64,000 bases of DNA from Planctomycetota bacterium (GTDB lineage: Bacteria; Planctomycetota; UBA1135; UBA2386): NCBI GenBank assembly GCA_965223545.1, contig OZ245006.1, positions 3,040,001 through 3,104,000 on the forward strand, given 5' to 3'. The position numbers and the translations under genes were made by a program. Shown here piece after piece: positions 6,551 through 35,229 of this stretch. Positions within the stretch are counted from its first letter, which is position 1. Each line of letters begins with the position of its first letter. The notes beneath the pieces are model-generated. The model saw only the letters and a list, made by a program, of their open reading frames with translations, did no database searches and was not told where the DNA came from.

Positions 6551-9500
6551 TCACTTCGGCATCTTCGCCATCGACGCCGCGAACCGAGCCGCCTGCACGT
6601 ACTTGCCGAGCTCCTCGACGGTCGGTGACTCGAGGACGGTGCGCAGCGGCACACCCACCGCCAACCGCTCCTTCAGGCGTCCGATCATGCGGTTGGCGAG
6701 CAGCGAGTCGAAGCCGAGCTCGAACAGGTTGTCGTGCACACCGACTTCGCCGATCCCGATCAGCTCGCCAACCACCGCCGCGATCTCGCACTCGATCTCC
6801 GAGCTCGGCGCGACGTATCGGGTCGCCAGCTGCGGCCGGGCGTGCGCCTGGACGCCACTCGCCTGCTCCTCCGCCGGCGCGGCATCGGTGGCGCCAAGCT
6901 CACCGCGGCTCCTCGCCCAGCGCAGCTCGAGATCGCCTGGCACCACCAGCACCTCGGGCAGCGGATTGCGGAGCAGCCGGGCGAACGCGTCGCCTCCCTC
7001 GGCGGCGCGAATCGCGTCGCGCAGCGCCGCCTCGCGCGCGCTCCTCTGCTCGGCAGTCGCGTCGGCCGCAAGCGCGTCGGCGGCGAACCCGACGTCCGCC
7101 CACGCATCCCACTGCGCGGCGATCCATGCCGCCCCGCCGGCCCCTTCGCGCGCCAGAGCCCACGCGTCGAGCACCGCGTTGGCGGCGACGTAGTCGGCGA
7201 GCCCGATCCCGCCGAGCAACGTGCTGACCGAAGAGCACAGCAGCACGAAGTCGCGTGGCGCGTCGCCGAGCACCTCGGCGAGAACGCGCGTACCGGCAAC
7301 CTTGGCAGCGAGGGTCGCGGCGGCCTGCGCGGAATCCGGCTCATCGAGCATCCGGTGGGCGATCGCACCGGCGGCGTGCACCACACCGTCGATGGTGCCC
7401 GTGTGGCCGAGTGCCCGCTCGACCACGCCGGCCATGGCAGCCGCGTCGGTGACATCCGCGGTCTCCACGACCACGCGAGCACCCGCCGCCTCGAGCTCCA
7501 TCACCGCCTGGATGCGGCGCGCCGCTCGGTCGGTCGGCGGCTCGCCACCCGGCGCTTGCGGCCAGGAGGAGCGCGGTGGGAGCGGACTCCGGCCCACCAG
7601 CACGAGCACGACGCCGGCACTCTCGGCCAACCGACGAGCGAGGGCCAGACCGATGCCACCCAAGCCGCCAGTGATCAAGTACACGCCCTTGACGCGCCCC
7701 GGCGCACCGTCCGCCGGCGGCAGGGGTGCCGGCACGATGGACCGCACCCAGCGCTGGCGACCCCGGTAGGCGACGACCCGGTCCGCACTCTCGCCGCGCG
7801 CCTCGGCGAGCACCTGCGCCGCCACGGCGGTGGCGTCGGTCTCGCGTTCCAACAGCACGTCGATGCTGCGGCAGGTCACCAGCGGAGATTCTTGGCCCAA
7901 CACCAACGCCGGCCCGAAGACGGCCGCTCGCTCCGGCCGCCGCACGGTGACTCCGCCGGCGTCGCGCAGCTGGTTGCTGACGACCTCGAGCTGGGCGGAC
8001 TGGTTGGCGAGGACCTGGGCGAGCGCGACCAGACTGTCGAAGCCCGCCCGCAGGTCGCGATCGTCGTCCGCCGCACCGGGCGCCGCGTCCACGACAGCGC
8101 CCAAGTGCACGACGATCATCCGCCGGTCGGCCTGGCGCGCCCGCCCGAGTTCGGCGGCGAACTCCTCCCGTCCCAGCGCGGCCCGACAACGCCGCACCGG
8201 ATCGCCGGCCTCGGCGAGCGCGCGCTGCAGGGCGTCGCCCAGCCCGTTCCCGTCGCCGACCAACAGCCAGCACGCAGGCCCGGCGGCGGCAGCCGGCACT
8301 GCGGCCGCGGTGCGCCGCCAGCCCGGGGTGAAGAACCAACGTCCGACGTCGTCGTTGCGCCCGACCGCCGGCGTTCCCGCCCCGGCCGAATCACCAGAGC
8401 CAGCAGCATCCGCATCCACCCAGTGGCGCACGCGGGCAAAGGGATAGGTCGGCAGGGAGACCCGGCGCACCGGTGCCTCACCGTGCGTTGCGCGCCAGTC
8501 CAGCGCAACGTCCGCGAGCCACAGCCGCGCCGCCGCCGCAGACAACGCCTCGCCGTCCGACACCGTGTCCTGCGGGTGCCGCATCGAGCTCACCACCACC
8601 CGGCCGGCAACTCCCTGCTGCTTCGACAGCGCGCTCAGCGTCTGCCCCGGGCCGACTTCCAGCAGCACCAGCCCCTCCTCCGCCAACAGCCTGCCCGCGC
8701 CATCCGCGAACCGCACCGCGTGCCGCAGGTTGCGTCCCCAATACTCCGGCGCCTGCCAGTCCTCGGCCGCGATCCAGTCCCCCGTCACCGTCGACACACA
8801 CCGCGCACCGGCCGGTTGTCGAGAAACCGCCGCCACCGCCCGCTCGAACTCCGCGACGATCGGCTCCATCATCGACGAGTGGAACGCGTGGCTCGTGTGC
8901 AACGGCCGGCACGGCAGGTCGCGCTCCGACAGCTCCGCCTCCAACGCCGACACGGCGGCGTGCGGGCCCGACACCACGCACGAGCGCGGCCCGTTCACCG
9001 CGGCCAGCGACAGCTCACCGCCGGCCGGCAGCTGGCCGAGCAGCGCTCCAACCTCCGCCTCGCCCAGCGGCACGCTCAGCATCGCGCCACCCGGCAGCGC
9101 CTGCATCAACCGACCCCGCAGCGCGACCAGCGCCAGCGCGTCCGACAGCTCGAACACACCCGCCAACGTCGCCGCCACGAACTCGCCGATGCTGTGGCCC
9201 AAGAACGCCGACGGCACCACGCCGAACGACCGCCACAGCTCCGCCAGCGCGTACTCCACCGCGAAGATCGCCGGCTGCGTCCATCGGGTCTGCTGCAGCC
9301 GCTCGGCGTCTTCCGCCGACGGCGACGCCGGATACAGCAGCGCGCGCAGGTCTCCCTCCAGGTGCGGTTGCAGCAGCTCGGCGCACCGGTCCAGCGCGGC
9401 GCGGAACACCGGGTAGCCCTCGTACAACGACCGCCCCATGCCGACGTACTGCGCGCCCTGTCCGGGGAACAAGAACGCGACCCGTGCCTCACCGTCGCCC

Positions 9501-12500
9501 CGCGCTCCCGCCAGCACGCGCTTGGCATCCCCACCGGCCAGCACCTCGGCCGCGTCGGCGGCATCGCGCACCACCAGCGCGCGCCGGTGCGCCAGCCCCG
9601 AACGGCTCGCCTGCGTGGTCCACGCCACGTCTTGCAAACCCTGCTCCGGGTGCGCGCGCAGGTGCGCCGCCAACCGCGCCGACATCTCGTCCAGCGCCGC
9701 CACCGTGTGCGCCGACAGCGTCAGCACCTCGCATTCGCGCGTCGCCTCGGCCGGCACCGGCCGCGCCGGCGCCTCCTCCAGCACGGCGTGCGCGTTCGTC
9801 CCGCCCAGACCGAACGAGCTCACCGCGGCACGGCGTGGAACCGAGCCACGCTGCCACGTGCGGTATGCCGCGTTGACGAAGAATGGAGACGCCGCGAAGT
9901 CGATCTCCGGGTTGGGCCGCTCGTAGTGCAGGCTCGGCGGAATCGCCTCGTTCTGCAGGGCAAGTACCGCCTTGATGAAGCCGGCGATGCCGGCGGCGGC
10001 ATCGAGATGCCCCATGTTCGACTTGACCGAGCCGATGGCGCAGAACTGGCGATCGACCGTCGCTGCGGAATAAGCCTTCGACAGCGCGGCGATCTCGATG
10101 GGGTCGCCCAGCGTCGTCGCCGTGCCGTGACACTCGACGTAGCCGATGCTGCGCGGATCGACGCCGGCCATGCTCTGCGCCATGGCGACGACCTCGGCCT
10201 GCCCGTCGACGCTGGGCGCGGTGAAGCCGACCTTGTTGGCGCCATCGTTGTTCATCGCCGCGCCGCGCACGACGGCCCGCACCGGGTCGCCGTCGGCGAG
10301 CGCATCGGCCAGCCGTTTGAGTACGACGACTCCACAGCCATCGCCACTCAGCGTCCCCTTCGCCGCGGCATCGAACGGCCGGCAGTGCCCGTCCGGCGAC
10401 AGGATCTGCCCCTCCTCGTAGAGGTGCCCCGTCTTCTGCGGGAAATTGATCTGCACGCCCCCCGCCAGCGCCATGTCGCACTGGAAGTCGCGCAGACTCT
10501 GGCAGGCTTGCACCACCGCCACCAGCGAGGTCGAGCACGCGGTGTCGACTTCCACGCTCGGCCCCTTGAGGTCCAACTTGTAGGACACCCTGGTCGTCAA
10601 GAACCCCGAGTAGTTGAGCAGGAACACCTGGAACGGCGACATCGACGCCAAGAAGCGCGCGTTGCGCAACAGCTGGTTGCGCCGGTAGCTGTTCGGTCCA
10701 CAGCCGGCGAAGACGCCGACCGACCCCGCCCGGAGCGGGTCGTAGCCCGCGTCCTCGAGCGCGGCGTGCGCGACCTGCAAGAACACACGGTGTTGCGGGT
10801 CCATCGCGTCCGCTTCGCGCGGATTGACGCCGAACGCCTCGGCGTCGAACAGATCGGCGTCTTCGAGCACGGCCCGCGCCCGCACGTAGTCGTCGCGGTC
10901 GAGCCAAGCCGGATCGACACCTGCAGCGAGGACCTCTTCGTCGGAGAAGAAGCTCACGCACTCGATCCCGTCGGCCAAGTTGCGCCAGTATGCGTCGACG
11001 TCGGGTGCCTTGGGAAAGCGCGCCGCGATGCCGATCACCGCGATCGCCTCGCCGTCCGCCGCCGCATCGCCCCGGCGGACAAGCCGCGCGCGCACCGCCG
11101 CGAACGCGTCCTCCTCCCCATCGCCGCCCCGCAGGTGCGCCGCCATCGCGCCCACCGTCGGATACTGGAACACCTCCGCGATCGACAGCTCCACGCCACA
11201 GCGCTCCGCCAAACGCCGCCGCAGCTGCACGATCAGCAGCGAGTGGCCACCCAGGTCGAAGAAGTTGTCGCCGCGCCCGACCCGCTCGACCTCCAACAGC
11301 TCCCGCCAAATCGCCGCGACCTCTTCCTCCAGCTCCCCCGACGGCGCCACGTACCCCGCACCGCCGCGCGCTCCCACCTCGCGCCCCATCAGCGCCGCGC
11401 GGTCCACCTTGCCGTTCGGCGTCAGCGGATACTCCGCCAGCTCCACCAGCACACCCGGCACCATGTACTCCGGCAGCGAACCGCGCAGATGCTCGCGCAG
11501 CGCGCCCTCCGTCGCCTCCGCGTTGCCCGGCTCGACGCGGTAGAAGCCCACCAGCTGCACGTCGCCGCGCCGTTTGGTCTGCGCCACCACCACCGCGTCT
11601 CGCACGCCGCCGTGCCCCGCCAGCACCGCCTCGATCTCGCCCAGCTCGATCCGGAAGCCGCGCACCTTCACCTGGTGGTCGATCCGGCCCAAGAACTCCA
11701 GCTCACCCGCGTTCGTGTAGCGCGCGAGGTCGCCCGTCTCGTAGATCCGACCCGTCTCCGCAAACGGGTGCGCCACGAACTTCTCCGCCGTCAGCGCATC
11801 GCGACGCCAGTAGCCCCGCGCCAGCCCGTCACCGCCCAAGAACAGCTTGCCGGGAACACCCACCGGCACCGGCTGGCCGTGCCGGTCCAGCAGGTACACC
11901 TCCGTGTTCGCGATCGGCGCACCGATCGGCACCGGACCGCTCCCCGACTCCACCCGGCCGCACAGCGACCAGATCGTCGTCTCCGTCGGCCCGTACATGT
12001 TCCACACTTCGCCCACCAGCGGCAGCAGCCGCTCCGCCAGCTCACGCGGAAACGCCTCGCCGCCGCACAGCACCTTCAGCCCCGACAGGCCGCCCCATCC
12101 CGACTCCAGCAGCAGGTGCCACGTCGCCGGCGTCGCCTGCATCACCGTCGCGCCACACGACTCCATCAGCGCCGCCAGCTGCTCGCCGTCGCTCGCCTGC
12201 GCGCTCGTCGCGATCTCCACCCGGCCGCCGACCAACAGCGGCAGGTACAGCTCCAGGCCCGCGATGTCGAACGAGATCGTCGTCACCCCGAGCAGCGTGT
12301 CCTCGCTCCCCATCCCCGGGCTCGACGCCATCGCGCACAGAAAGTTCAGCAGCGCCCGGTGCTCGATCTGCACCCCCTTCGGCCGCCCCGTCGAACCCGA
12401 CGTGAAGATCACGTACGCCAGATCACCGGGCCCCGCCGCCGGCGCCAGCGGCGCGGCGCTTTGCGCGGCGATCGCCGCTCGCGTCCCTTCCTCCTCGAGG

Positions 12501-14431
12501 TCCAGCACCGCCGGCAGCGACGGCGGTAGCCGTGGCAGCAGCCCGCTCTGCGTCACCAGCAGCGAGATCTCCGCGTCCTCCATGATGAACGCCAATCGAT
12601 CCGCCGGGAACGACGGGTCCAGCGGTACGTACGCGGCGCCGGCCTTCTGGATCGCCAGCAGCGCCACCAGCATCCCGACCGAGCGCTCCACCGACACGCC
12701 CACCAGCTGCCCAGGAGCCACGCCCCGCGACGACAGCTCGCGCGCCAGCTGGTTGCTGCGCGCCTCCAGCTCGGCGTGGCTCAGCTGCTCGCCGCCGCAC
12801 GACACCGCCACCGCGTCACCGCGCTCCGCCGCGACCCGGCTGAGCTCGACCACCAACGTCGAGTCGCGCGGATACTCCCGCTGCGTTGCTGCACTCGATG
12901 CCACCACTGCCGCGCGCTCGCTCTCCGTCAGCAGCGGCAGCTCCCAGATGCTCGCTTCCGGCGACGCGGCGACGCCTTCGAGCAGCGCGATGAAGTGGCC
13001 GGTCATGCGCACGACGGTTTGCTCGTCGAACAGATCGCTGTTGTACTCGAACGCACCGACGTCGTTGCCGAGGATGAGCGACAGGTCGAACATCGCCGCC
13101 GCGGTGTCGGGCGAAGTCCACTCGACCTCGAGGCCGCCGAACGCCGGCAGGTCCGCGTCGTAGAGGACGTTGAACAGCACCTGGAACAGGGGGTTGCGGC
13201 TCAGGTCGCGGTCCGGCTTGAGCTCGACGACCAGCTGCTCGAACGGCATCTCCTGATGGGCAAATGCGTCCAGCGCTACCTTGCGGACGCGCGCCAACAA
13301 AGCGCGGAAGCTCGGCGCGCCGGTGAGATCGACGCGCAGCACCAGCGTGTTCAAGAACAGGCCGATCAGGGGCTCGGTCTCGGTGCGATCGCGGTTGGCG
13401 ACCGGCGTCCCGACCGCGATGTCATCCTGCCCCGAGTAGCGCGCCAGCAGCACGTGGAACGCCGCCAGCATGGTCATGAAGTAGGTGCAGCCCTCGCTCC
13501 GCCCCAGGGCCTTGACCGCCTCGTGCGTGGTGGCCGGAATGTCGAAGGCGCGCCGCGTGCCGTGGAACGTCTGCTGTGGGGGCCGCGGCCGGTCGGTCGG
13601 CAGCTCGAGGGGGGCTAGTCCGGCCAGTCGTTCGCGCCAGTACTCCACCAACCGCCCGGAAGCGGTCGGATACCAACGCCGCTGCCAAGCCGCGTAGTCG
13701 CCGTACTGGACCGTCAGCGCCGGCAGAGGGGATGCACGCCCCTCGGTGCGCGCCTCGTACAGGGCCGCGATCTCCTTGAACAGCACGCCGTAGCTCCAGC
13801 CGTCGCTGATCAGGTGCAGCATGGTCAGCACCAAGAGGTGCTCGCGGGCGGCGGTCTTGACCAGCGTGAAGCGGTAGAGCGGCGGGTCTTTGTGATCGAA
13901 CGATCGCTCGAACTCAGCCCGCGCGAACTCGTCCGCCGCGCGGCCCGGGTCGTCGCGGTCGGTGAAGTCCAGCACCGACAGCACGCCGCCTCGCGGCTCG
14001 TCGACGACCTGCACCGGACCGTCCCCGGCCAGCCGGAACGCGGTGCGCAGGATCTCGTGCCGGCGCTCGATCTCGTCGAAGCTCCACGCCATCGCCGGCA
14101 GGTCGAGGGCGCCGTGCAGGCGCACCGCGTACACGAGGTTGTACGCGGCGGTGTCCTGCTCGAACTGCAGCAAGAACCAAAACCGCTGTTGGGCAAACGA
14201 CAGCGGCAACGGCGCTTGCCGATCCGCCGGCGTGATGCCAGCCGCCGCCGGCGCCGCGCTTTGCTTGGCAGCGCCGAGAAAGCGAACGAGCTCTTCCTCG
14301 CGCGCGCGCACCTCGGCGAGCAGCTCGGCCGGCACCGGCGTATCGCCTTCGTCGACCCGGAGACGACCGTCTTCGATGCGCAGCCGCACCCCGAGCTGGC
14401 GAAGCCGCGCCAACAGAGGGACCACGCTCAT
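6551..14431 (-). CDS. Hybrid NRPS-PKS 1: TubC_N/beta-hairpin docking-C-A(Gly)-PCP-KS-AT(malonyl)-KR-ACP
   Basis: N-term LLARLRQLGVRLRIEDGRLRV. C motif LHLISDG. A motifs YVIFTSGSTGRPKG and NMYGPTETTIW, code read as DILQLGMIWK (Gly). PCP FFDLGGHSL. KS DTACSTS, HGTAT, NMGH. AT GQG, GHSIGE, HAFH. KR ITGGLGGIG and DYVAAN. ACP LGFDSL. No TE. Confidence 0.95.
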   Translation of the reverse strand: MSVVPLLARLRQLGVRLRIEDGRLRVDEGDTPVPAELLAEVRAREEELVRFLGAAKQSAAPAAAGITPADRQAPLPLSFAQQRFWFLLQFEQDTAAYNLVYAVRLHGALDLPAMAWSFDEIERRHEILRTAFRLAGDGPVQVVDEPRGGVLSVLDFTDRDDPGRAADEFARAEFERSFDHKDPPLYRFTLVKTAAREHLLVLTMLHLISDGWSYGVLFKEIAALYEARTEGRASPLPALTVQYGDYAAWQRRWYPTASGRLVEYWRERLAGLAPLELPTDRPRPPQQTFHGTRRAFDIPATTHEAVKALGRSEGCTYFMTMLAAFHVLLARYSGQDDIAVGTPVANRDRTETEPLIGLFLNTLVLRVDLTGAPSFRALLARVRKVALDAFAHQEMPFEQLVVELKPDRDLSRNPLFQVLFNVLYDADLPAFGGLEVEWTSPDTAAAMFDLSLILGNDVGAFEYNSDLFDEQTVVRMTGHFIALLEGVAASPEASIWELPLLTESERAAVVASSAATQREYPRDSTLVVELSRVAAERGDAVAVSCGGEQLSHAELEARSNQLARELSSRGVAPGQLVGVSVERSVGMLVALLAIQKAGAAYVPLDPSFPADRLAFIMEDAEISLLVTQSGLLPRLPPSLPAVLDLEEEGTRAAIAAQSAAPLAPAAGPGDLAYVIFTSGSTGRPKGVQIEHRALLNFLCAMASSPGMGSEDTLLGVTTISFDIAGLELYLPLLVGGRVEIATSAQASDGEQLAALMESCGATVMQATPATWHLLLESGWGGLSGLKVLCGGEAFPRELAERLLPLVGEVWNMYGPTETTIWSLCGRVESGSGPVPIGAPIANTEVYLLDRHGQPVPVGVPGKLFLGGDGLARGYWRRDALTAEKFVAHPFAETGRIYETGDLARYTNAGELEFLGRIDHQVKVRGFRIELGEIEAVLAGHGGVRDAVVVAQTKRRGDVQLVGFYRVEPGNAEATEGALREHLRGSLPEYMVPGVLVELAEYPLTPNGKVDRAALMGREVGARGGAGYVAPSGELEEEVAAIWRELLEVERVGRGDNFFDLGGHSLLIVQLRRRLAERCGVELSIAEVFQYPTVGAMAAHLRGGDGEEDAFAAVRARLVRRGDAAADGEAIAVIGIAARFPKAPDVDAYWRNLADGIECVSFFSDEEVLAAGVDPAWLDRDDYVRARAVLEDADLFDAEAFGVNPREADAMDPQHRVFLQVAHAALEDAGYDPLRAGSVGVFAGCGPNSYRRNQLLRNARFLASMSPFQVFLLNYSGFLTTRVSYKLDLKGPSVEVDTACSTSLVAVVQACQSLRDFQCDMALAGGVQINFPQKTGHLYEEGQILSPDGHCRPFDAAAKGTLSGDGCGVVVLKRLADALADGDPVRAVVRGAAMNNDGANKVGFTAPSVDGQAEVVAMAQSMAGVDPRSIGYVECHGTATTLGDPIEIAALSKAYSAATVDRQFCAIGSVKSNMGHLDAAAGIAGFIKAVLALQNEAIPPSLHYERPNPEIDFAASPFFVNAAYRTWQRGSVPRRAAVSSFGLGGTNAHAVLEEAPARPVPAEATRECEVLTLSAHTVAALDEMSARLAAHLRAHPEQGLQDVAWTTQASRSGLAHRRALVVRDAADAAEVLAGGDAKRVLAGARGDGEARVAFLFPGQGAQYVGMGRSLYEGYPVFRAALDRCAELLQPHLEGDLRALLYPASPSAEDAERLQQTRWTQPAIFAVEYALAELWRSFGVVPSAFLGHSIGEFVAATLAGVFELSDALALVALRGRLMQALPGGAMLSVPLGEAEVGALLGQLPAGGELSLAAVNGPRSCVVSGPHAAVSALEAELSERDLPCRPLHTSHAFHSSMMEPIVAEFERAVAAVSRQPAGARCVSTVTGDWIAAEDWQAPEYWGRNLRHAVRFADGAGRLLAEEGLVLLEVGPGQTLSALSKQQGVAGRVVVSSMRHPQDTVSDGEALSAAAARLWLADVALDWRATHGEAPVRRVSLPTYPFARVRHWVDADAAGSGDSAGAGTPAVGRNDDVGRWFFTPGWRRTAAAVPAAAAGPACWLLVGDGNGLGDALQRALAEAGDPVRRCRAALGREEFAAELGRARQADRRMIVVHLGAVVDAAPGAADDDRDLRAGFDSLVALAQVLANQSAQLEVVSNQLRDAGGVTVRRPERAAVFGPALVLGQESPLVTCRSIDVLLERETDATAVAAQVLAEARGESADRVVAYRGRQRWVRSIVPAPLPPADGAPGRVKGVYLITGGLGGIGLALARRLAESAGVVLVLVGRSPLPPRSSWPQAPGGEPPTDRAARRIQAVMELEAAGARVVVETADVTDAAAMAGVVERALGHTGTIDGVVHAAGAIAHRMLDEPDSAQAAATLAAKVAGTRVLAEVLGDAPRDFVLLCSSVSTLLGGIGLADYVAANAVLDAWALAREGAGGAAWIAAQWDAWADVGFAADALAADATAEQRSAREAALRDAIRAAEGGDAFARLLRNPLPEVLVVPGDLELRWARSRGELGATDAAPAEEQASGVQAHARPQLATRYVAPSSEIECEIAAVVGELIGIGEVGVHDNLFELGFDSLLANRMIGRLKERLAVGVPLRTVLESPTVEELGKYVQAARFAASMAKMPK
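8432..9805. repeat. Direct repeat block B, copy 1 (KS end, KS-AT linker and AT); GRINS-like
   Basis: Aligns without gaps to 29140-30513 (offset 20708), with roughly two dozen mismatches seen by eye. C far exceeds G on the + strand (9121-9180: C28 G16 A13 T3). Confidence 0.9.
10984..12969. repeat. Direct repeat block A, copy 1 (A domain, PCP and KS start); GRINS-like
   Basis: Aligns to 31698-33683 (offset 20714). I saw no mismatch until ~12709 and only about 7 after it. The antisense ORFs 10990..12405 and 31704..33119 translate identically. 11281-11340: C33 G9. Confidence 0.93.
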
Positions 14432-14658
14432 CGGCAGAGCCTTCGGTCGGCCTGGGCGGGGGGCGGCGAAAACGGATCGGACATGGGTCCCTGCAGGGGC
14501 TGATCGGGCGTCGGCGGCACGGTGCTGAACAGAGGAGACGGGTCGACGGGCATCTTATGGAATCCGCCGGCGAGCGGCGCCTCAATCAGCACCTAACCCG
14601 TTCTTGCATCAACGGTTGTGGAGCAACCCACCAGCCAGTGGCTCTTCCCCCTCGTCGC

Positions 14659-16206: not shown

Positions 16207-16222
16207 GGTGTGGTTCTCGGGA

Positions 16223-17227: not shown

Positions 17228-17233
17228 CGCACG

Positions 17234-17722
17234 TCAGACGTCGATCTCGAGCAGCACTTTGACCTTCTTGCGCGCGGCGGCGTCGAGCTCGTCCGCGGGA
17301 ACGAAGCCAATGCCGCCCTTCATCGCACCGACGAAGCGGATCACGCGCTGGGCATCGGTCAGCTGCTTGGCCGGCTTGATCGCCGACTGGTACTGCAGCT
17401 TGATCCAGTAGCGCGCCACCGAGTCCGCGTTCATCGACAGCACGTCGCGGAAGAACGCGTCTCGTGCTTCGACGTCACCCTGGAACTCCACCGGCACGAC
17501 CTTCTGTCGCCGGAACGCGCCGGCGCTCTTGCCGACCGCCCGCTCCCAAGTGTGCTCCTTCTTCAGGTAGAGCTGACGGATCATCTCCTTGCTCAGCTTC
17601 TCGGCCGGGTTGGCGGCGTGGACGATCACGCACACCTTCCGCTTCTTGTCTTGCGCCGCCGGGAGCACCGCAGTGACCAGGGCCATTGCCAGCAAGGCCC
17701 GCCAAGTCGTGGTCTTCCACAT
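17234..17722 (-). CDS. Small periplasmic binding-protein-like protein (family usually labelled phosphate ABC substrate-binding-like)
   Basis: Signal peptide PAA|Q. Pattern VIVH..NP...LS...IRQLYL, R..F...VL, YW, V..FV....GGIGFV. Confidence 0.7.
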   Translation of the reverse strand: MWKTTTWRALLAMALVTAVLPAAQDKKRKVCVIVHAANPAEKLSKEMIRQLYLKKEHTWERAVGKSAGAFRRQKVVPVEFQGDVEARDAFFRDVLSMNADSVARYWIKLQYQSAIKPAKQLTDAQRVIRFVGAMKGGIGFVPADELDAAARKKVKVLLEIDV

Positions 17723-17724
17723 GA

Positions 17725-23918: not shown

Positions 23919-23926
23919 TTCCCCCG

Positions 23927-26077: not shown

Positions 26078-26138
26078 AGTCCGGGGTCTTGCTCGACCCG
26101 GCCACCGACCGAAGAATCAGGAACGCGCGACCGCAACC

Positions 26139-27320
26139 ATGCCGACCGAGACCGAAATCCGCGAAGCAGCCGCCTTCGGCCTGGACTTGGATTGGGAGCG
26201 CAAGGATCGGGAGGTCGGCGAGATCTCCGAGCGCTACGACGAGGTCCGCGAGCTCGACGACGGTTTCGAGTTTCGCTACCCGGGCGGCGACCAATGGGCC
26301 ACCGACCTGAGCCGGGTGCAGCAGTTTCTGCAGCGCCACTATCCGTACTTCGACATCGAGCTGCGGCGCGGCGCGAACGACGCGCCCCACTGGCTGCGGA
26401 TCACCGGACCGGACGACGCGAAGTCGGTCCTGCAGCAGGGGCTGGATTACGCCGACGGCACAGCCACCCGCGATGGCTCCGAGATCCCGAGCTTGCGCGA
26501 ACGGCTGCTCGGCTTGGGACCGCGCTATCTGAGTGCACCGCTGCGGATGTTGCCCGACTTCCTCGTCATCGGCGCAGCCAAGGCCGGCACGACCTCGCTG
26601 TACTCCTATCTCTCGGGTCATCCGGCGATCGGCGCTGCGTTCCGCAAGGAGCTCTACTTCTTCGACATGAAGTGGTCGCGCGGCATCAACTACTACCGCG
26701 CCCGGTTCCCCACCATCGCCCAGAAACGACGCCACGAACGCCGCCACGGCAGCCCGTTCATCACGGGCGAGGCCACGCCGTGCTACATGTTCCACCCGCA
26801 CGCAGCAAGGCGCGCCCGCGCGACCGTGCCGCATGCCAAGCTGATCGTGTCACTGCGCGATCCCGCCGAGCGGGCGTACTCGCACTACTGCATGAACGCG
26901 CGCCGCGGAGTCGAGACGCTGTCCTTCGAAGAGGCGATCGAGCGGGAGCCCGAGCGCCTGCACGGCGAGCTCGAGCGCATGCGGGAAGACGAGCACTACT
27001 TCAGCCTCAAACGACACTACTGCGCATACCTGGCGCGCGGAGTCTACGCCGATCAACTGCAGTCGTGGCTCGAGCACTTTCCGCGCGACCAGCTCCTGGT
27101 GCTGACCAACAGTCAGCTCAAGCGCGACCGGCAGCGCACGCTGGCGAGGGTGCAGGAGTTTCTCGGACTGCCAATCCGCGAGCTGCCGGACACGGGCAGG
27201 CGCAACTTCATCCCGTACCCCGCGATCGAACCGCACATGGCGCGCCGGTTGCGCGACTACTTCGCGCCGCACGACGAGCGACTGCATGCGTTGCTCGGCG
27301 AACGCCCGGATTGGCTGTGA
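26139..27320 (+). CDS. PAPS-dependent sulfotransferase (heparan-sulfate 3-O-ST-like) with an extra ~110-aa N-terminal domain
   Basis: PDFLVIGAAKAGTTSLY (5'-PSB loop), KELYFFD, GEATPCY, LRDPAERAYSHY (3'-PB), YLARGVY. The ORF-track start at 25542 overlaps the upstream gene, so ATG 26139 is preferred. Confidence 0.9.
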   Translation: MPTETEIREAAAFGLDLDWERKDREVGEISERYDEVRELDDGFEFRYPGGDQWATDLSRVQQFLQRHYPYFDIELRRGANDAPHWLRITGPDDAKSVLQQGLDYADGTATRDGSEIPSLRERLLGLGPRYLSAPLRMLPDFLVIGAAKAGTTSLYSYLSGHPAIGAAFRKELYFFDMKWSRGINYYRARFPTIAQKRRHERRHGSPFITGEATPCYMFHPHAARRARATVPHAKLIVSLRDPAERAYSHYCMNARRGVETLSFEEAIEREPERLHGELERMREDEHYFSLKRHYCAYLARGVYADQLQSWLEHFPRDQLLVLTNSQLKRDRQRTLARVQEFLGLPIRELPDTGRRNFIPYPAIEPHMARRLRDYFAPHDERLHALLGERPDWL

Positions 27321-27330
27321 GCCGAGCCGG

Positions 27331-30300
27331 TCACCCCGAATCGCCGCCGTCCATGGTCGCCGCCCAACGGGCGACTTCGGCGTAGGCCGCCAAGTCGGCA
27401 ACCGTCGGCGACTCGATGATCGTCGCCAGCGGTACCGTCAGCTCCAGCTTGTCTTTCAGGCGACCGATCAGCCGATGGCCGAGCAGTGAGTCGAAGCCGA
27501 GGTCGAAGAAGTTGTCGAGCACCCCGACGCGATCGAGTGCCAGCAGCTCCTGCAAGATCTCGGCGATGTCGCGCTCGAGGTCGTTGCGCGGTGCGGTGTA
27601 TTCCTGCGCCAGCTCCGGCCGGCCGTGGGTCGCCAGTGCCGGCGCGTCACCATCGGTCGGTGGAGCGTTGTCGATGGGTGCGCGCGCGCGCGTCCGGCGC
27701 GTCTGCAAGTCGGTCGTCGAAACGACCACCTGGCGGTACGGCTGCGCCAGAATGCGCACCAACGCCGGCGCTGCCTCGTCGCCTCGGATGGCGTCGCCGA
27801 GCCGGCGCTCGCGCTCTTGGCGCTGCGCTTCGGTTTCGTCCGGTGGCGCCAGCTCGACGGCGAAGCCTACGTCGGCGAACGCATCCCAGTCGACCGCGAC
27901 CCACGGCGCGCCCATCCGGTGAGCCAACGCATCGAGCACGGCATTGGCGCCGGCGTAGTCGGCGAAGCCGACGCCGCCGATCACCGTGCTCAAAGACGAC
28001 ACCAGCACGGCGAAGTCGAGCGGCGCGTCGCCGAGCGCATCGGCCAAGGCGAACGCTCCCGCCACCTTGGCTTCGCCGACATCCGCAGCCTGGGCGGGCG
28101 ACAACGACGGCAAGGGATGGTGTGCGATCGCCCCAGCGGCGTGCACGATCCCGTGCAGCGCGCCGTGCTCCGCGCGGACGCGGGCGAGCAACGCACGGGC
28201 CGCCGCCGGATCGGCAAGGTCGACTTGTTGGGTCCGCACCGTGGCACCGCGATCGCGCAGTGCACGCACCACCGCCACTCGGCGCTGGACCCGCGCGTCG
28301 GCGCCGGCCCACTGTGCCTCTGGCGGCAGCTCGGACCGACCGGCGAGCACGATCGTGACCCCCGGCGCGGCGAGCGCCTGTGCTAGCGATCCGCCGACGC
28401 CGCCGAGACCGCCGGTCACCAAGTAGACGCCGTTGTCGCGGGGACGCCACGCGGTCGACGGCACCTCGTAGGGCGCGTAATCGCGCACCCAGCGCGCACC
28501 ACCCCGCAGCGCGACCGCGTCGGCCGCGCCGCCGGCGCAAGCCTCGCGCAGCACTTCCGCAGCGGCACGATCCGGCTCGGGATCGCGCTCGAGATCGACA
28601 CTCCACGCCCGCGCACCGCCGAGCTCTTGACCGAACACGAGTGCGGCGCCGAACACCGCCGCGCGCTCGGGATCTTCGACTGCGCAGCCGGCAGCCTCGC
28701 GCAGGGCATCGGTCACGACCACGAGATCCGCCTCCGCGTTGGCCGCGTCGACCGCCGCAGCCACGGTGGCGAAGCTGCGCCACCACGCGGCAGCATCGGT
28801 GGGGGCGTCGCCACCGCGCAGGCCACCGAGATGGAGGACGACGATGCGGTCCACACCCCGCTCGCGGAGCTCGGCGAGCGAGGCGTCGGCCGCGGCGCGC
28901 TCGACGTCCAGCGAGTCGCGGCGCAACGGCTCACCGGCCGCGGACAGCTGGCGGTGCACGGCCGCAGCCACCGAACCGCCAGCGTCCAGCAGCCACCACC
29001 CCCGCCGGAGCGAGCGCTCCGCGGGCACGGCGGCGGGCCGCCAGACCGGCACCGAAAACCACTCGGGCAGCGGACGCCGCCCCGCCTGCGCCGGCACCGC
29101 GGCCGGCGCACCGGTGTCGGCGTCGATCCAGTACCGGGTGCGGGCAAAGGGATAGGTCGGCAGGGAGACCCGGCGCACCGGTGCCTCACCGTGCGTTGCG
29201 CGCCAGTCCAGCGCGACGTCCGCGAGCCACAGCCGCGCCGCCGCCGCAAACAACGCCTCGCCGTCCGACACCGTGTCCTGCGGGTGCCGCATCGAGCTCA
29301 CCACCACCCGGCCGGCAACTCCCTGCTGCTTCGACAGCGCGCTCAGCGTCTGCCCCGGGCCGACTTCCAGCAGCACCAGCCCCTCCTCCGCCAACAGCCT
29401 GCCCACGCCATCCGCGAAGCGCACCGCGTGCCGCAGGTTGCGTCCCCAATACTCCGGCGCCTGCCAGTCCTCGGCCGCGATCCAGTCCCCCGTCACCGTC
29501 GACACACACCGCGCACCGGCCGGTTGTCGAGAAACCGCCGCCACCGCCCGCTCGAACTCCGCGACGATCGACTCCATCATCGACGAGTGGAACGCGTGGC
29601 TCGTGTGCAGCGGCCGGCACGGCAGGTCGCGCTCCGACAGCTCCGCCTCCAACGCCGACACGGCGGCGTGCGGGCCCGACACCACGCACGAACGCGGCCC
29701 GTTCACCGCGGCCAGCGACAGCTCACCGCCGGAAGCTCGCTGCCCGAGCAGCGCTCCAACCTCCGCCTCGCCCAGCGGCACGCTCAGCATCGCGCCACCC
29801 GGCAGCGCCTGCATCAACCGGCCCCGCAGCGCGACCAGCGCCAGCGCGTCCGACAGCTCGAACACACCCGCCAACGTCGCCGCCACGAACTCGCCGATGC
29901 TGTGGCCCAAGAACGCCGACGGCACCACGCCGAACGACCGCCACAGCTCCGCCAGCGCGTACTCCACCGCGAAGATCGCCGGCTGCGTCCATCGGGTCTG
30001 CTGCAGCCGCTCGGCGTCTTCCGCCGACGGCGACGCCGGATACAGCAGCGCGCGCAGGTCTCCCTCCAGGTGCGGTTGCAGCAGCTCGGCGCACCGGTCC
30101 AGCGCGGCGCGGAACACCGGGTAGCCGTCGTACAGCGACCGCCCCATGCCGACGTACTGCGCGCCCTGTCCGGGGAACAAGAACGCGACCCGCGCCTCAC
30201 CGTCGCCCCGCGCTCCCGCCAGCACGCGCTTGGCATCCCCGCCGGCCAGCAGCTCGGCCGCGTCGGCGGCATCGCGCACCACCAGCGCGCGCCGGTGCGC

Positions 30301-33300
30301 CAGCCCCGAACGGCTCGCCTGCGTGGTCCACGCCACGTCTTGCAAACCCTGCTCCGGGTGCGTGCGCAGGTGCGCCGCCAACCGCGCCGACATCTCGTCC
30401 AGCGCCGCCACCGTGTGCGCCGACAGCGTCAACACCTCGCATTCGCGCGTCGCGTCGGCCGGCACCGGCCGCGCCGGCGCCTCCTCCAGCACGGCGTGCG
30501 CGTTCGTCCCGCCGAAGCCGAACGCGCTGACCGCGGCGCGCCGCGGCCGTGCACCGCGCGGCCAGGACCGCAGCGCGGCGTTGACGAAGAACGGCGAGCC
30601 CGCGAAGTCGATCTCCGGATTGGGCCGCTCGTAGTGCAGCGTCGGCGGGATCTCCTCCCGCTCGAGCGCCAGCACTGCCTTGATGAAACCCGCGACCCCT
30701 GCCGCGGCATCGGTGTGCCCGAGGTTGGACTTGACCGCGCCGAGCGCACAGGCTTGCGCATCCGGCGCCCCGCCGGCGCGAAACGCGCGGGACAGCGCGG
30801 CGATCTCGATCGGATCGCCGAGGGGCGTCGCCGTGCCATGGCATTCGACGTAGCCGATGCTCGTCGCATCGACACCCGCGTCCATCTGCGCCGCGGCGAT
30901 GACCTTGGCCTGCCCATCGACACTGGGCGCGGTGAAGGCGACCTTGTTGCTGCCGTCGTTGTTCAGTGCGCCGCCGCGCACCACGGCGCGGATCGGATCG
31001 CCATCGCGGAGCGCGTCGGCGAGGCGCTTGAGCAGCACGACGCCGGCTCCCTCGCCACCCAGGGTCCCCGCCGCCCGCGCGTCGAAGGGCCGGCAGTGGC
31101 CATCGGGCGAGAAGATCATGCCCTCCTGATAGAGGTAGCCGATCGTGCGCGGGCACGCGATGGAGACCCCGCCGGCCAGCGCCATGTCGCACTCGTAGCC
31201 GCGCAGACTGCTGCAGGCCTGGAGGATCGCGACCAACGACGTCGAGCACGCGGTCTGCACCTCCACGGCCGGCCCTTGCAGGTCGAGCTTGTAGGCGACC
31301 CGGGTCGCCAGCGCGCCGCCTCCATAGCTGAACAGGGCGAGCTGAAACGCGTCCGCGGATTCGGCGAACGCGCGATTGCGGAGCACGTTGTTGCTGAAGT
31401 ACGTGTTCGGCCCGCATCCCGCGAAGACACCGACCGAGCCGGCACCGCGCGGACCGTAGCCCGCGTCCTCGAGCGCGGCCCAACAGCACTCGAGCAGGAA
31501 CCGGTGCTGCGGGTCCATGGCCTCGGCCTCGCGCGCGGGGATCGCGAACAAGCCGGCATCGAACAGGTCGACGTCGTCGAGCACCGCACGCGCTTTGACG
31601 TAGGCCGGATCAGCCAGCCGCTCGGCGGGTTCACCGGCAGCCAGCAGCTCGTCGTCGGAGAACCAGGAGATGCCTTCGCGACCGTCGCGCAGCATTTGCC
31701 AGTATGCGTCGACGTCGGGTGCCTTGGGAAAGCGCGCCGCGATGCCGATCACCGCGATCGCCTCGCCGTCCGCCGCCGCATCGCCCCGGCGGACAAGCCG
31801 CGCGCGCACCGCCGCGAACGCGTCCTCCTCCCCATCGCCGCCCCGCAGGTGCGCCGCCATCGCGCCCACCGTCGGATACTGGAACACCTCCGCGATCGAC
31901 AGCTCCACGCCACAGCGCTCCGCCAAACGCCGCCGCAGCTGCACGATCAGCAGCGAGTGGCCACCCAGGTCGAAGAAGTTGTCGCCGCGCCCGACCCGCT
32001 CGACCTCCAACAGCTCCCGCCAAATCGCCGCGACCTCTTCCTCCAGCTCCCCCGACGGCGCCACGTACCCCGCACCGCCGCGCGCTCCCACCTCGCGCCC
32101 CATCAGCGCCGCGCGGTCCACCTTGCCGTTCGGCGTCAGCGGATACTCCGCCAGCTCCACCAGCACACCCGGCACCATGTACTCCGGCAGCGAACCGCGC
32201 AGATGCTCGCGCAGCGCGCCCTCCGTCGCCTCCGCGTTGCCCGGCTCGACGCGGTAGAAGCCCACCAGCTGCACGTCGCCGCGCCGTTTGGTCTGCGCCA
32301 CCACCACCGCGTCTCGCACGCCGCCGTGCCCCGCCAGCACCGCCTCGATCTCGCCCAGCTCGATCCGGAAGCCGCGCACCTTCACCTGGTGGTCGATCCG
32401 GCCCAAGAACTCCAGCTCACCCGCGTTCGTGTAGCGCGCGAGGTCGCCCGTCTCGTAGATCCGACCCGTCTCCGCAAACGGGTGCGCCACGAACTTCTCC
32501 GCCGTCAGCGCATCGCGACGCCAGTAGCCCCGCGCCAGCCCGTCACCGCCCAAGAACAGCTTGCCGGGAACACCCACCGGCACCGGCTGGCCGTGCCGGT
32601 CCAGCAGGTACACCTCCGTGTTCGCGATCGGCGCACCGATCGGCACCGGACCGCTCCCCGACTCCACCCGGCCGCACAGCGACCAGATCGTCGTCTCCGT
32701 CGGCCCGTACATGTTCCACACTTCGCCCACCAGCGGCAGCAGCCGCTCCGCCAGCTCACGCGGAAACGCCTCGCCGCCGCACAGCACCTTCAGCCCCGAC
32801 AGGCCGCCCCATCCCGACTCCAGCAGCAGGTGCCACGTCGCCGGCGTCGCCTGCATCACCGTCGCGCCACACGACTCCATCAGCGCCGCCAGCTGCTCGC
32901 CGTCGCTCGCCTGCGCGCTCGTCGCGATCTCCACCCGGCCGCCGACCAACAGCGGCAGGTACAGCTCCAGGCCCGCGATGTCGAACGAGATCGTCGTCAC
33001 CCCGAGCAGCGTGTCCTCGCTCCCCATCCCCGGGCTCGACGCCATCGCGCACAGAAAGTTCAGCAGCGCCCGGTGCTCGATCTGCACCCCCTTCGGCCGC
33101 CCCGTCGAACCCGACGTGAAGATCACGTACGCCAGATCACCGGGCCCCGCCGCCGGCGCCAGCGGCGCGGCGCTTTGCGCGGCGATCGCCGCTCGCGTCC
33201 CTTCCTCCTCGAGGTCCAGCACCGCCGGCAGCGACGGCGGTAGCCGTGGCAGCAGCCCGCTCTGCGTCACCAGCAGCGAGATCTCCGCGTCCTCCATGAT

Positions 33301-35229
33301 GAACGCCAATCGATCCGCCGGGAACGACGGGTCCAGCGGTACGTACGCGGCGCCGGCCTTCTGGATCGCCAGCAGCGCCACCAGCATCCCGACCGAGCGC
33401 TCCACCGACACGCCCACCAGCTGGCCACGAGCCACGCCCCGCGACGACAGCTCGCGCGCCAGCTGGTTGCTGCGCGCCTCCAGCTCAGCGTGGCTCAGCC
33501 GCTCGCCGCCGCACGACACCGCCACCGCGTCACCGCGCTCCGCCGCGACCCGGCTGAGCTCGGCCACCAACGTCGAGTCGCGCGGATACTCCCGCTGCGT
33601 CGCTGCACTCGATGCCACCACTGCCGCGCGCTCGCTCTCCGTCAGCAGCGGCAGCTCCCAGATGCTCGCTTCCGGCGACGCGGTCATCGCCCGCAGCAGC
33701 TGCAGATAGTGCTGCTCGAACCGGGCGACGGTGGCGTCGTCGAACAGGTCGGTGTTGTACTCGAACGCACCCTGCAGGTCGCCGCCGGCACTGTCGCCGA
33801 CGAACAGCGTCAGGTCGAACATCGCCTGACCGCTGTCGGGCAGCAGCAGCTCGACCTCGCAGTCGCCGAGCCGCGGCAGCTCCGCTTCCTGGGTCATGCT
33901 GAACAGCACCTGGAACAGCGGGTTGCGGCTCAGGTCGCGGTCGGGCTTGAGCTCGACGACGAGCTGCTCGAACGGCATGCCCTGGTGCTCGAACGCGTCG
34001 AGGGCGGTGCCCCGCACGCGCCGCAGCACCTCGCCGACACTCGGCGCGCCCGACAGGTCCGACCGCAGCACGAGGGTGTTCAAGAACAAACCGATCAAGG
34101 GCTCGGTCTGCGCCGATTCGCGCCCACCGGTCGGCGTGCCCAGCACGATGTCGTCCTGTCCGCTGTAGCGTGCCAGCAGCACCTTGAACGCCGCCAACGC
34201 TGCCATGAAGAACGTGCACCCGCGGGCGCGCGCCATCGCCTTGAAGTCGTCGACGACGGGCTTGGGCATGCGGAACACGCGCCGGCCGCCCGCAAACGTC
34301 TGCACCGCGGGGCGTGGCCGGTCGGTGGGCAGCTCGAGCACCGGTACGCCTGCCAGCTGCTGCCGCCAGTAAGCCAGCAGGGCACCACCGTGGGCGTCGT
34401 ACCAACGGCGCTGCCATGTGGCGTAGTCCGCGTACTGCACCTCGAGCTCCGGCAACGGCGACCGCTTGCCGGCACATCGCGCCTCGTACAGCGTCGCCAG
34501 CTCGTGGAACCAGATCCCGAACGACAACCCGTCGGTGATCATGTGCAGCATGGTGAACACGAGCACGTGATCGCTCTTGCCGAGCTGCAGGAGCACCAAC
34601 CGCAGCAGCGGCCCGGTGCGCAGATCGCATCCGGTCTCGCTCTCTTGCTGCGCGATCTTCAGCGCCGCCGCGAGCGGATCGTCCCGATCGCGCAGGTCGG
34701 TGCGCGCCAGCGTCCACGCCGCCGGCTCGTGCACCACCTGCACCGGCTCGTCGCCGGCGGTCTCGAACGTCGTGCGCAGCACCTCGTGCCGGCGGACGAT
34801 CTCAGCGATGCTCCCCTCGAGCGCGTCGGCATCGAGCGGACCGCGAAACCGCAGCATGTGGGACAGGTTGTAGGGCGCGGTGTCGCCGCCGAGCTCGCAC
34901 AGGAACCAGAACCGCTGCTGGCCAAAGGAGAGGGGCAGGGTCCCGTCACGCGGCACGGGCGGGATCACCAGCGGGTCTTCGGCACCGGCCGAGATCGGAT
35001 CGGCGGCGGCCGCCGCCGCGGGGTCGCCAGACCGAAGTGCCTCCTCATCCTCCGACTCCGACTCCGACTCCAAGACGAAGGCGATCACCTCGTCGCGCTG
35101 CGCTTCGAGCTCGCGGGCGAGCTCTGCCGGCAGCTCGGCCCGGGGAATTCCCGTGCAGAGCTCACCGCCATCGACCCACAACCGACAGCCCAGCGCGCGC
35201 AGGCGCGACAGCAGCTCGAACAGCGTCAC
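27331..35229 (-). CDS. Hybrid NRPS-PKS 2: docking-C-A(Gly)-PCP-KS-AT(malonyl)-KR-ACP
   Basis: Same architecture as 6551..14431. C LHMITDG; KS QTACSTS, HGTAT, NLGH; AT GHSIGE, HAFH; KR VTGGLGGVG, DYAGAN; ACP LGFDSL. GTG 35229 has GGGAG upstream; the ORF is open to 35271. Confidence 0.95.
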   Translation of the reverse strand: MTLFELLSRLRALGCRLWVDGGELCTGIPRAELPAELARELEAQRDEVIAFVLESESESEDEEALRSGDPAAAAAADPISAGAEDPLVIPPVPRDGTLPLSFGQQRFWFLCELGGDTAPYNLSHMLRFRGPLDADALEGSIAEIVRRHEVLRTTFETAGDEPVQVVHEPAAWTLARTDLRDRDDPLAAALKIAQQESETGCDLRTGPLLRLVLLQLGKSDHVLVFTMLHMITDGLSFGIWFHELATLYEARCAGKRSPLPELEVQYADYATWQRRWYDAHGGALLAYWRQQLAGVPVLELPTDRPRPAVQTFAGGRRVFRMPKPVVDDFKAMARARGCTFFMAALAAFKVLLARYSGQDDIVLGTPTGGRESAQTEPLIGLFLNTLVLRSDLSGAPSVGEVLRRVRGTALDAFEHQGMPFEQLVVELKPDRDLSRNPLFQVLFSMTQEAELPRLGDCEVELLLPDSGQAMFDLTLFVGDSAGGDLQGAFEYNTDLFDDATVARFEQHYLQLLRAMTASPEASIWELPLLTESERAAVVASSAATQREYPRDSTLVAELSRVAAERGDAVAVSCGGERLSHAELEARSNQLARELSSRGVARGQLVGVSVERSVGMLVALLAIQKAGAAYVPLDPSFPADRLAFIMEDAEISLLVTQSGLLPRLPPSLPAVLDLEEEGTRAAIAAQSAAPLAPAAGPGDLAYVIFTSGSTGRPKGVQIEHRALLNFLCAMASSPGMGSEDTLLGVTTISFDIAGLELYLPLLVGGRVEIATSAQASDGEQLAALMESCGATVMQATPATWHLLLESGWGGLSGLKVLCGGEAFPRELAERLLPLVGEVWNMYGPTETTIWSLCGRVESGSGPVPIGAPIANTEVYLLDRHGQPVPVGVPGKLFLGGDGLARGYWRRDALTAEKFVAHPFAETGRIYETGDLARYTNAGELEFLGRIDHQVKVRGFRIELGEIEAVLAGHGGVRDAVVVAQTKRRGDVQLVGFYRVEPGNAEATEGALREHLRGSLPEYMVPGVLVELAEYPLTPNGKVDRAALMGREVGARGGAGYVAPSGELEEEVAAIWRELLEVERVGRGDNFFDLGGHSLLIVQLRRRLAERCGVELSIAEVFQYPTVGAMAAHLRGGDGEEDAFAAVRARLVRRGDAAADGEAIAVIGIAARFPKAPDVDAYWQMLRDGREGISWFSDDELLAAGEPAERLADPAYVKARAVLDDVDLFDAGLFAIPAREAEAMDPQHRFLLECCWAALEDAGYGPRGAGSVGVFAGCGPNTYFSNNVLRNRAFAESADAFQLALFSYGGGALATRVAYKLDLQGPAVEVQTACSTSLVAILQACSSLRGYECDMALAGGVSIACPRTIGYLYQEGMIFSPDGHCRPFDARAAGTLGGEGAGVVLLKRLADALRDGDPIRAVVRGGALNNDGSNKVAFTAPSVDGQAKVIAAAQMDAGVDATSIGYVECHGTATPLGDPIEIAALSRAFRAGGAPDAQACALGAVKSNLGHTDAAAGVAGFIKAVLALEREEIPPTLHYERPNPEIDFAGSPFFVNAALRSWPRGARPRRAAVSAFGFGGTNAHAVLEEAPARPVPADATRECEVLTLSAHTVAALDEMSARLAAHLRTHPEQGLQDVAWTTQASRSGLAHRRALVVRDAADAAELLAGGDAKRVLAGARGDGEARVAFLFPGQGAQYVGMGRSLYDGYPVFRAALDRCAELLQPHLEGDLRALLYPASPSAEDAERLQQTRWTQPAIFAVEYALAELWRSFGVVPSAFLGHSIGEFVAATLAGVFELSDALALVALRGRLMQALPGGAMLSVPLGEAEVGALLGQRASGGELSLAAVNGPRSCVVSGPHAAVSALEAELSERDLPCRPLHTSHAFHSSMMESIVAEFERAVAAVSRQPAGARCVSTVTGDWIAAEDWQAPEYWGRNLRHAVRFADGVGRLLAEEGLVLLEVGPGQTLSALSKQQGVAGRVVVSSMRHPQDTVSDGEALFAAAARLWLADVALDWRATHGEAPVRRVSLPTYPFARTRYWIDADTGAPAAVPAQAGRRPLPEWFSVPVWRPAAVPAERSLRRGWWLLDAGGSVAAAVHRQLSAAGEPLRRDSLDVERAAADASLAELRERGVDRIVVLHLGGLRGGDAPTDAAAWWRSFATVAAAVDAANAEADLVVVTDALREAAGCAVEDPERAAVFGAALVFGQELGGARAWSVDLERDPEPDRAAAEVLREACAGGAADAVALRGGARWVRDYAPYEVPSTAWRPRDNGVYLVTGGLGGVGGSLAQALAAPGVTIVLAGRSELPPEAQWAGADARVQRRVAVVRALRDRGATVRTQQVDLADPAAARALLARVRAEHGALHGIVHAAGAIAHHPLPSLSPAQAADVGEAKVAGAFALADALGDAPLDFAVLVSSLSTVIGGVGFADYAGANAVLDALAHRMGAPWVAVDWDAFADVGFAVELAPPDETEAQRQERERRLGDAIRGDEAAPALVRILAQPYRQVVVSTTDLQTRRTRARAPIDNAPPTDGDAPALATHGRPELAQEYTAPRNDLERDIAEILQELLALDRVGVLDNFFDLGFDSLLGHRLIGRLKDKLELTVPLATIIESPTVADLAAYAEVARWAATMDGGDSG
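29140..30513. repeat. Direct repeat block B, copy 2; GRINS-like
   Basis: Near-identical to 8432-9805. Confidence 0.9.
31698..33683. repeat. Direct repeat block A, copy 2; GRINS-like
   Basis: Near-identical to 10984-12969. Confidence 0.93.

Follow-up and report, generated by a model that had tools for sequence, protein, structure and literature searches.

GRINS, genetic repeats that show intense nucleotide skews, are the described elements that most resemble the locus presented here. In the sections of the GRINS paper available to us, these repeats are common in actinobacteria and rare in proteobacteria, AMP-binding domains are listed as GRINS (206/7190), cases of anticorrelated GC and TA skew are mentioned without explanation, and the origin of the skew is described as unknown (Nivina et al. 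2021, PMC8256042). This distribution differs from that in the initial annotation of this DNA, which had called GRINS mainly actinobacterial and myxobacterial. In Table S1 of the same paper, many clusters are scored as having duplications but no GRINS (PMC8256042).

In the cinnamomycin and mangromycin PKSs, the AT conversion unit extends from a GTNAH motif to an HHYWL motif, according to the available part of that study (PMC12391348). Similar to what is proposed here, the concerted evolution of tufA and tufB in Salmonella involves intrachromosomal conversion between paralogues, with homology setting its bounds and mismatch repair shaping it; in the available text, whole genes in inverted orientation convert and no skew is described, whereas here only subdomains of diverged genes appear to convert (PMC5485169).

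Architecture of the Locus

The window, the whole stretch of 64,000 nucleotides that was analyzed, belongs to a host genome (G000) whose two contigs measure 8.07 Mb and 40 kb, and it contains the following biosynthetic genes.

6551-14431, minus strand: gene A, 2626 aa, TubC_N docking-C-A(Gly)-PCP-KS-AT(malonyl)-KR-ACP (Pfam), on the leading strand
27331-35271, minus strand: gene B, 2646 aa, domain order as in gene A (Pfam), an old paralogue of gene A (KS tree)
20502-23918, plus strand: third NRPS gene, TubC_N-C-A(Gly)-PCP, inverted, A domain with 64% amino acid identity, no skew, used as internal control
39332-43231, plus strand: PKS gene, KS-KR-ACP without an AT match, no skew, its counterpart adjoining the cluster of the relative G009

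The segment between the direct repeats of genes A and B (14432-27330) holds a chemoreceptor gene, a di-haem peroxidase-like gene, the inverted third NRPS gene, and a GDSL hydrolase gene. A crossover between the repeated tracts would remove ~20.7 kb and leave a single hybrid gene. The proteins scanned included no thioesterase. The plus-strand gene at 26192-27385 encodes a 397-aa protein with no Pfam match that is sulfotransferase-like by language-model features (score 0.95), and a sulfatase, an arylsulfotransferase, a glycosyltransferase, and a permease-2OG oxygenase ORF lie nearby. Given the sulfotransferase-like protein and its sulfatase and arylsulfotransferase neighbors, the cluster product may be sulfated.

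A search for ftsZ in 21 genomes of the order, the host and 20 relatives, gave no match, and DUF1559 was not found in the host (1/11 genomes) and so lends nothing to the phylum assignment. Planctomycetota are not known to have FtsZ, and the absence of ftsZ from the host and these relatives is consistent with a planctomycete host.

Two Near-Identical Tracts in Otherwise Diverged Genes

Self-comparison of the window returned two ungapped block pairs at precisely the positions reported in the initial annotation: 10984-12969 = 31698-33683 (tract 1; 1986 bp, 6 mismatches, 99.7% identity) and 8432-9805 = 29140-30513 (tract 2; 1374 bp, 22 mismatches, 98.4% identity).

10984-12969, minus strand: tract 1, copy A; covers the C-A linker, A, PCP, and ~22 residues at the KS start (aa 488-1149 of gene A); fourfold G 0.72
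31698-33683, minus strand: tract 1, copy B; differs at 6 positions, every one within the 5' 260 bp on the coding strand
10984-12709 = 31698-33423, minus strand: identical core of tract 1; 1726 bp, letter-identical
8432-9805, minus strand: tract 2, copy A; KS end (GTNAH), KS-AT linker, AT, and the post-AT linker as far as LPTYPFAR (aa 1543-2000); fourfold G 0.71
29140-30513, minus strand: tract 2, copy B; differs at 22 positions, of which 6 lie in one 11-bp patch matching 9025-9035
9806-10983 (gene A) and 30514-31697 (gene B), minus strand: KS core between the tracts, outside conversion; 69% amino acid identity, ordinary codons

Outside the tracts, the nucleotide identity of genes A and B falls to 0.48-0.81, in agreement with the divergence noted earlier for the flanking domains, and the shared fourfold sites around the tracts are mostly near saturation. 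The uniformly high identity expected of a recent whole-gene duplication is thus not observed. Of the 26 codons that differ between tract copies, 13 are synonymous. A search of the genome for further copies, as had been advised, found none beyond the pair; the next-best match has 72% identity.

The differences between the copies are nested in density: 0 in the 1726-bp core, 6 in the adjoining 260 bp (all within 12710-12887), and 22 in the 1374 bp of tract 2. At the AT-block rate, zero differences in the core have a Poisson p of ~6e-9, the rate having been computed from 15 scattered AT-block differences where the actual count is 16. These nested densities point to repeated conversion events, of which the identical core would be the most recent.

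As in the cinnamomycin and mangromycin AT conversion regions, tract 2 runs from GTNAH at the KS end to a conserved post-AT motif; unlike in those PKSs, as far as the available text describes them, an A-PCP tract accompanies the AT tract and no change of extender is visible (PMC12391348). The natural borders seen here, from the C-A linker to the KS start and from GTNAH to the post-AT motif, mark swap points that both proteins tolerate.

Assembly Check

Contigs of four public runs, from one study and two samples that may include the source sample, were compared with the locus. These contigs break at the tract edges, and unique flank contigs overlap the tracts at both loci. In runs X1-X3, tract depth is approximately the sum of the flank depths. 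All 28 tract differences are present as alternative letters in the run contigs, and long contigs over the identical core carry none. Assembler collapse or polishing, which had been named as the possible undoing of the repeat, could in principle have produced a 1726-bp core of 100% identity, and the four runs may derive from the source sample itself. The contig breaks, the unique flanks overlapping the tracts at both loci, the additive depth, and the presence of both allele sets speak against it, and a codon skew cannot arise from collapse. This explanation of the tract identity is largely refuted, and we regard it as extremely improbable.

Phylogenetic Evidence for Gene Conversion

Among 40 relatives searched, near-full-length matches occur only in G009, a member of the same family in another genus, and the closest non-self match has 71% identity; none of the relatives was near enough to polarize the 28 tract differences. 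The G009 cluster contains three such genes, X, Y, and Z, which show neither repeats (68-69% identity) nor skew. In the KS tree, gene A falls together with G009-X (0.99), as gene B does with G009-Y (1.00). The C (100/96) and ACP (0.92) trees likewise place gene B with G009-Y. In the A, PCP, and AT trees, gene A pairs instead with gene B, on long branches (0.32-0.35). The KR tree gave no resolved grouping; the KS, AT, and KR trees were built with FastTree. Pairing with the paralogue inside the tracts and with the orthologue outside them, as conversion predicts, is therefore seen for KS in both genes and for C and ACP in gene B. The orthologous pairing of KS against the paralogous pairing of A, PCP, and AT indicates that genes A and B are older than the split between the host and G009 and were homogenized locally at a later time.

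Judged from these sequence comparisons, the tracts are very probably kept alike by repeated gene conversion, and divergence or selection would exclude such conversion from C, the KS core, KR, and ACP. The earlier proposal that conversion homogenizes exactly the substrate-selecting domains therefore stands as to conversion, on the evidence of the trees, and falls as to "exactly", since the tracts include the PCP, linkers, and KS ends. An apparent orthologue of G009-Z (G009:C32) lies in the host at G000:C1:3467686-3477465, ~400 kb from the locus; the cluster is thus split in the host and contiguous in G009.

Substrate Specificity of the Converted Domains

The A domains of gene A, gene B, the third NRPS gene, X, and Y share the pocket segment DILQLGMIWK, the position numbering behind this reading being our assumption. 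An HAFH motif, which we take to denote a malonyl-type AT, is found in the ATs of A, B, X, Y, and Z and of a distant paralogue in the host genome. In the available part of a published account, DILQLGMIWK corresponds to a Gly code (PMC12283262). Compared with the G009 orthologues, no change of specificity is visible in the pocket segment or the HAFH motif of the converted A and AT domains, so that the predicted Gly and malonyl specificity matches that of orthologues outside conversion. The tracts appear, accordingly, where both proteins do an equal job.

Codon Recoding within the Tracts

On the coding strand, fourfold sites inside the tracts have G 0.71-0.72, C 0.20, and T 0.05, compared with G 0.43-0.52, C 0.39-0.48, and T 0.05-0.09 outside. 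Against family-matched leading-strand codon use, fourfold G in the tracts is 531/680 where 350 are expected (z 14.5); outside the tracts it is 452/848 and 454/876 where 430 and 450 are expected. Five plus-strand base counts made by hand in the initial annotation proved exact: C33:G9 (11281-11340), C28:G15 (12121-12180), and C28:G16 with A13:T3 (9121-9180) inside the tracts, and C18:G16 (10561-10620) and C17:G19 (13021-13080) outside. The same annotation had described a shift toward G/T-rich codons, of which the G gain holds and the T gain does not, NNT codons not being raised. Silent sites in the tracts are recoded from C to G only, without a shift toward T. The third Gly A domain, which had been offered as a codon control, serves as one, with ordinary codons and fourfold G of 0.45.

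Mean |GC skew| is 0.20-0.21 in the AT tract and 0.24 in the A-PCP tract, above the level of ~0.15 proposed for skew confined to the repeats and far beyond the genome background: values at least as high occur in 20/5870 genome tiles of AT-tract length and 3/4061 of A-PCP-tract length, tracts included. Mean |TA skew| is 0.18 in the AT tract and 0.12 in the A-PCP tract, with a genome median of 0.134, and is equaled or exceeded in 1103/5870 and 2736/4061 tiles of equal length, respectively. Among non-duplicated 300-codon windows, in a scan whose gene calls cover 72% of the chromosome, 0/4336 have a log-odds shift of at least 1.0 (maximum 0.82; tracts 1.2-1.4). The shift is also seen at the protein level, E/(D+E) being 0.68 in the tracts and 0.49-0.61 in four homologues. 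Pooled exchanges from C-form to G-form number 254:168 inside and 302:305 outside the tracts, counted against four non-independent homologues. Over the last ~40 identical codons of tract 1, the G shift fades. Taken together, the skew is probably a by-product of conversion.

A different origin of both features would be the import of G-rich A-PCP and AT pieces from a donor with odd codon use, or their codon selection, followed by a single copying into both genes. A single recent copying also yields high identity, and the converted-domain branches are long, as noted above. Both tracts nevertheless fall among native homologues in the trees, and one such event does not account for two tracts with the same shift, nested difference densities, and the recurrence of a repeat-restricted shift in other genomes; we consider it improbable.

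Comparison with GRINS

The locus shares with GRINS long, domain-sized repeats of more than 98% identity within one cis-AT PKS/NRPS cluster, a strong GC skew concentrated at third positions, coverage of the AT, and an A domain, a known carrier, in the sections of the paper available to us (PMC8256042). It differs from them in showing no T gain, a GC-TA skew correlation of 0.15-0.23 (0.70 there), one polarity throughout, and a signature of transversion rather than transition (PMC8256042). The host lacks FtsZ, bears MutS, and stands outside the phyla named in the GRINS text at hand (PMC8256042), and the name Planctomycetota is absent from the supplement text and from a 2023 survey (PMC10394414), as far as these are available. 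GRINS in NRPS modules and A domains are already on record in the GRINS paper, so that the A-domain case is not new.

The formal definition of GRINS asks for a length of more than 500 bp, more than 80% identity to a region of the same cluster, and mean |GC skew| and mean |TA skew| each above 0.15 in 150-nt windows moved by 30. At 1374 and 1986 bp and 98.4% and 99.7% identity, both tracts exceed the first two limits, and both exceed that for GC skew. For TA skew, the AT tract reaches 0.18 (0.15-0.16 in an approximation of the pipeline), the limit of 0.15 being exceeded by 36% of genome tiles as well, and the A-PCP tract stays at 0.11-0.12 because its recoding is from C to G only. A correlation between GC and TA skew, typical of GRINS though outside the formal definition, is not seen here (r 0.15-0.23), Streptomyces control tracts having mostly 0.5-0.96. 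By the formal definition, the AT tract thus qualifies as a GRINS, with a TA skew close to background, and the A-PCP tract does not. The GRINS match proposed initially holds as a resemblance and, formally, for half of the locus.

In the published GRINS model, skew arises first by error-prone replication (tautomeric C→T and A→G), after which the skewed sequence converts its neighbors and diversifies the product. The AT is covered by the tracts with borders at known swap points, the AT tract falls within the formal definition, and moderate G shifts, of up to 0.82, are seen in a few single-copy genes, as such a model would allow. There is no transition signature, however, NNT is not raised, no single-copy window matches the tracts, and the specificity motifs equal those of orthologues outside conversion, leaving no diversification visible. 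For this locus, we find the published order of events hard to credit.

A second possibility is that conversion is real and the skew stems from strand-specific mutagenesis during repair, through damage to exposed single-stranded DNA or translesion synthesis, with C changing to G. The shift is confined to repeats and depends on context, as would be expected of such a process: it is strong after C or T (ACC→ACG 38:4, TCC→TCG 44:1, CTC→CTG 107:6) and weak after G (GGN 28:59, CGN 42:34). Mutagenesis alone does not predict that T falls and A rises where myxobacterial tracts are G-shifted, that the reverse holds where they are C-shifted, or that genomes bearing NucS switch to G+T, all described below. 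It is a less likely source of the skew, though one to be taken seriously.

A Proposed Mismatch-Repair Filter

Bacterial MutS is taken here to act weakly on pyrimidine pairs; for its ranking of mismatches, no bacterial source was found in the literature. In the available parts of the respective papers, the C-C mismatch escapes mammalian mismatch repair (PMC11853414), and Streptomyces NucS cuts G/T, T/T, and G/G and not C/C, A/A, or A/C (PMC11109965). The host genome contains MutS and lacks NucS.

In the mechanism proposed here, conversion would proceed with a fixed strand geometry, and repair would veto or revert the heteroduplex mismatches that it sees and pass those that it misses. The leading-sense strand of the recipient would pair with the complementary strand of the donor, as in lagging-strand gap repair or the repair of a collapsed fork. 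A recipient C opposite a donor G would then give C:C, which passes, and the reverse would give G:G, which is removed, so that purines would accumulate on the leading strand over very many events. NucS, blind to C:C, A:A, and A:C, would give G+T, the classic GRINS pattern. Conversion would persist where both proteins do the same job, that is, Gly activation and carriage and malonyl loading. The model predicts G/C and T/A shifts of opposite sign in MutS hosts and of the same sign in NucS hosts.

For a cross-taxon comparison, clusters were selected by AT-domain content alone, and repeats of at least 450 bp and at least 90% identity were scored; seven G044 stretches without repeats were left out of the count. 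On the MutS side, comprising myxobacteria and three Thermoanaerobaculum stretches, repeats occur in 9/29, all nine myxobacterial. In 9/9 of these clusters, the log-odds shifts of G/C and T/A have opposite signs (e.g., +2.35/-1.68 and -1.31/+1.55), with two weak cases and two of the nine clusters homologous to each other (78%). In Streptomycetales, repeats occur in 7/12 stretches, and all seven have same-sign shifts, with NNT up and NNA down. At the locus presented here, the shifts are +1.12 for G/C and -0.08 for T/A, that is, T/A barely moves. MutS is present in G042, G045, G047, G051, G056, and G067 and was searched for without a match in G041 and G076, G061 lying outside the check, and the distribution of NucS is the reverse where tested.

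Several further observations accompany this comparison. The two homologous myxobacterial tracts, L160-L161/L162-L163 (G051:C17, G056:C13), are 78% identical between genomes and 98-100% within, with fourfold C down to 0.07-0.10. One Streptomycetales pair, L195-L199 (G076:C1, offsets 82811-90130 of a joined 95 kb), changes along its length from near-neutral to C+A-rich, unlike its G+T neighbors. Among 79 KS-related loci, only 3 have internal repeats. A 471-bp Thermoanaerobaculum pair has fourfold G of 0.64 versus 0.46; it lies below the stricter repeat threshold and was left out of the count. Two low-GC cyanobacterial loci with internal repeats were uninformative.

Repair type is confounded with taxon in this comparison of only three lineages, the absence of MutS having been seen in two Streptomycetales, and the fall of both NNT and NNA at the present locus needs an extra GC-biased component. 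That a repair filter, here MutS, shapes the recoding is put at even chances, and the same balance applies to the whole explanation, recurrent conversion plus a mismatch-repair filter giving C→G. Somewhat more tentatively, GRINS may represent no elements at all and instead be the trace that blind spots of mismatch repair leave on long-running gene conversion, with purine skew (C→G, T→A) in MutS lineages, keto skew (G+T) in NucS lineages, and the replication fork setting the G strand; the dual-skew definition would then have hidden a large MutS class, with the present locus as a clean example. We take many of the clusters scored in Table S1 as having duplications but no GRINS to be myxobacterial, from our assignment of producers, and such a score would be expected if the definition misses an opposite-sign class. 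The locus and the sign contrast also suggest that the apparent enrichment of GRINS in Streptomyces may be partly a product of the definition. No papers joining GRINS and NucS were found in the accessible literature, subscription-only work being outside reach. The locus offers in-gene, in-cluster, and orthologue controls for a purely transversional version in a MutS host, and together with the sign contrast across taxa it makes the cause of GRINS testable by knockout and reporter.

Replication Polarity

The replication origin of the host was placed by the skew minimum (4,016,777) and dnaA (4,017,607), and with this origin the G-gaining strand of the tracts is both the coding and the leading strand. 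Among nearby direct repeats in the host genome for which the same gene provides a control and 120 or more sites were scored, G is on the leading strand in 5/5 loci: the shift is to C in four tandem-repeat genes encoded on the lagging strand and to G in the gene A/B pair. Since the latter is the only leading case, strand is confounded with gene type. Rows of insertion sequences, which have no non-repeated control, were dropped from this count. Among small rows with fewer scored sites, 1/5 agrees with G on the leading strand; a pair at 3.711/3.712 Mb, without an in-gene control, is leading and C-shifted, and a RAYT-like family is G-shifted in three lagging copies too.

In other genomes, strand was called from flanks, a procedure that is correct for 175/177 40-kb tiles of the host. 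Of the nine myxobacterial clusters, four clearly and three weakly have G on the leading strand, G061 C4a has no shift, and G067 gave no clear result. In Streptomycetales, two leading clusters agree, the lagging-encoded G084 keeps G+T on its coding strand, and the sign is reversed in one G076 pair. Given these mixed results, the polarity is suggestive for MutS hosts and, at most, a possibility for NucS hosts; that replication sets the polarity of the skew is slightly less likely than not.

The four lagging tandem-repeat loci, C-shifted relative to the rest of the same gene, lie at G000:C1:2930641-2939310, 5023621-5026230, 6504901-6506850, and 98671-99480. A multicopy ORF of ~240 aa is present at G000:C1:2259971-2260788 (L134:5082-5789) and in ~11 more full copies of 88-97% identity. 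A 58-residue query of it gave no Pfam match, and at full length it matches REP_Tyr_transpos (REP-associated tyrosine transposase) below the cut-off. This ORF has the strongest G shift in the host genome (log-odds 1.9-2.6), with formal G+T skew, in both replication orientations.
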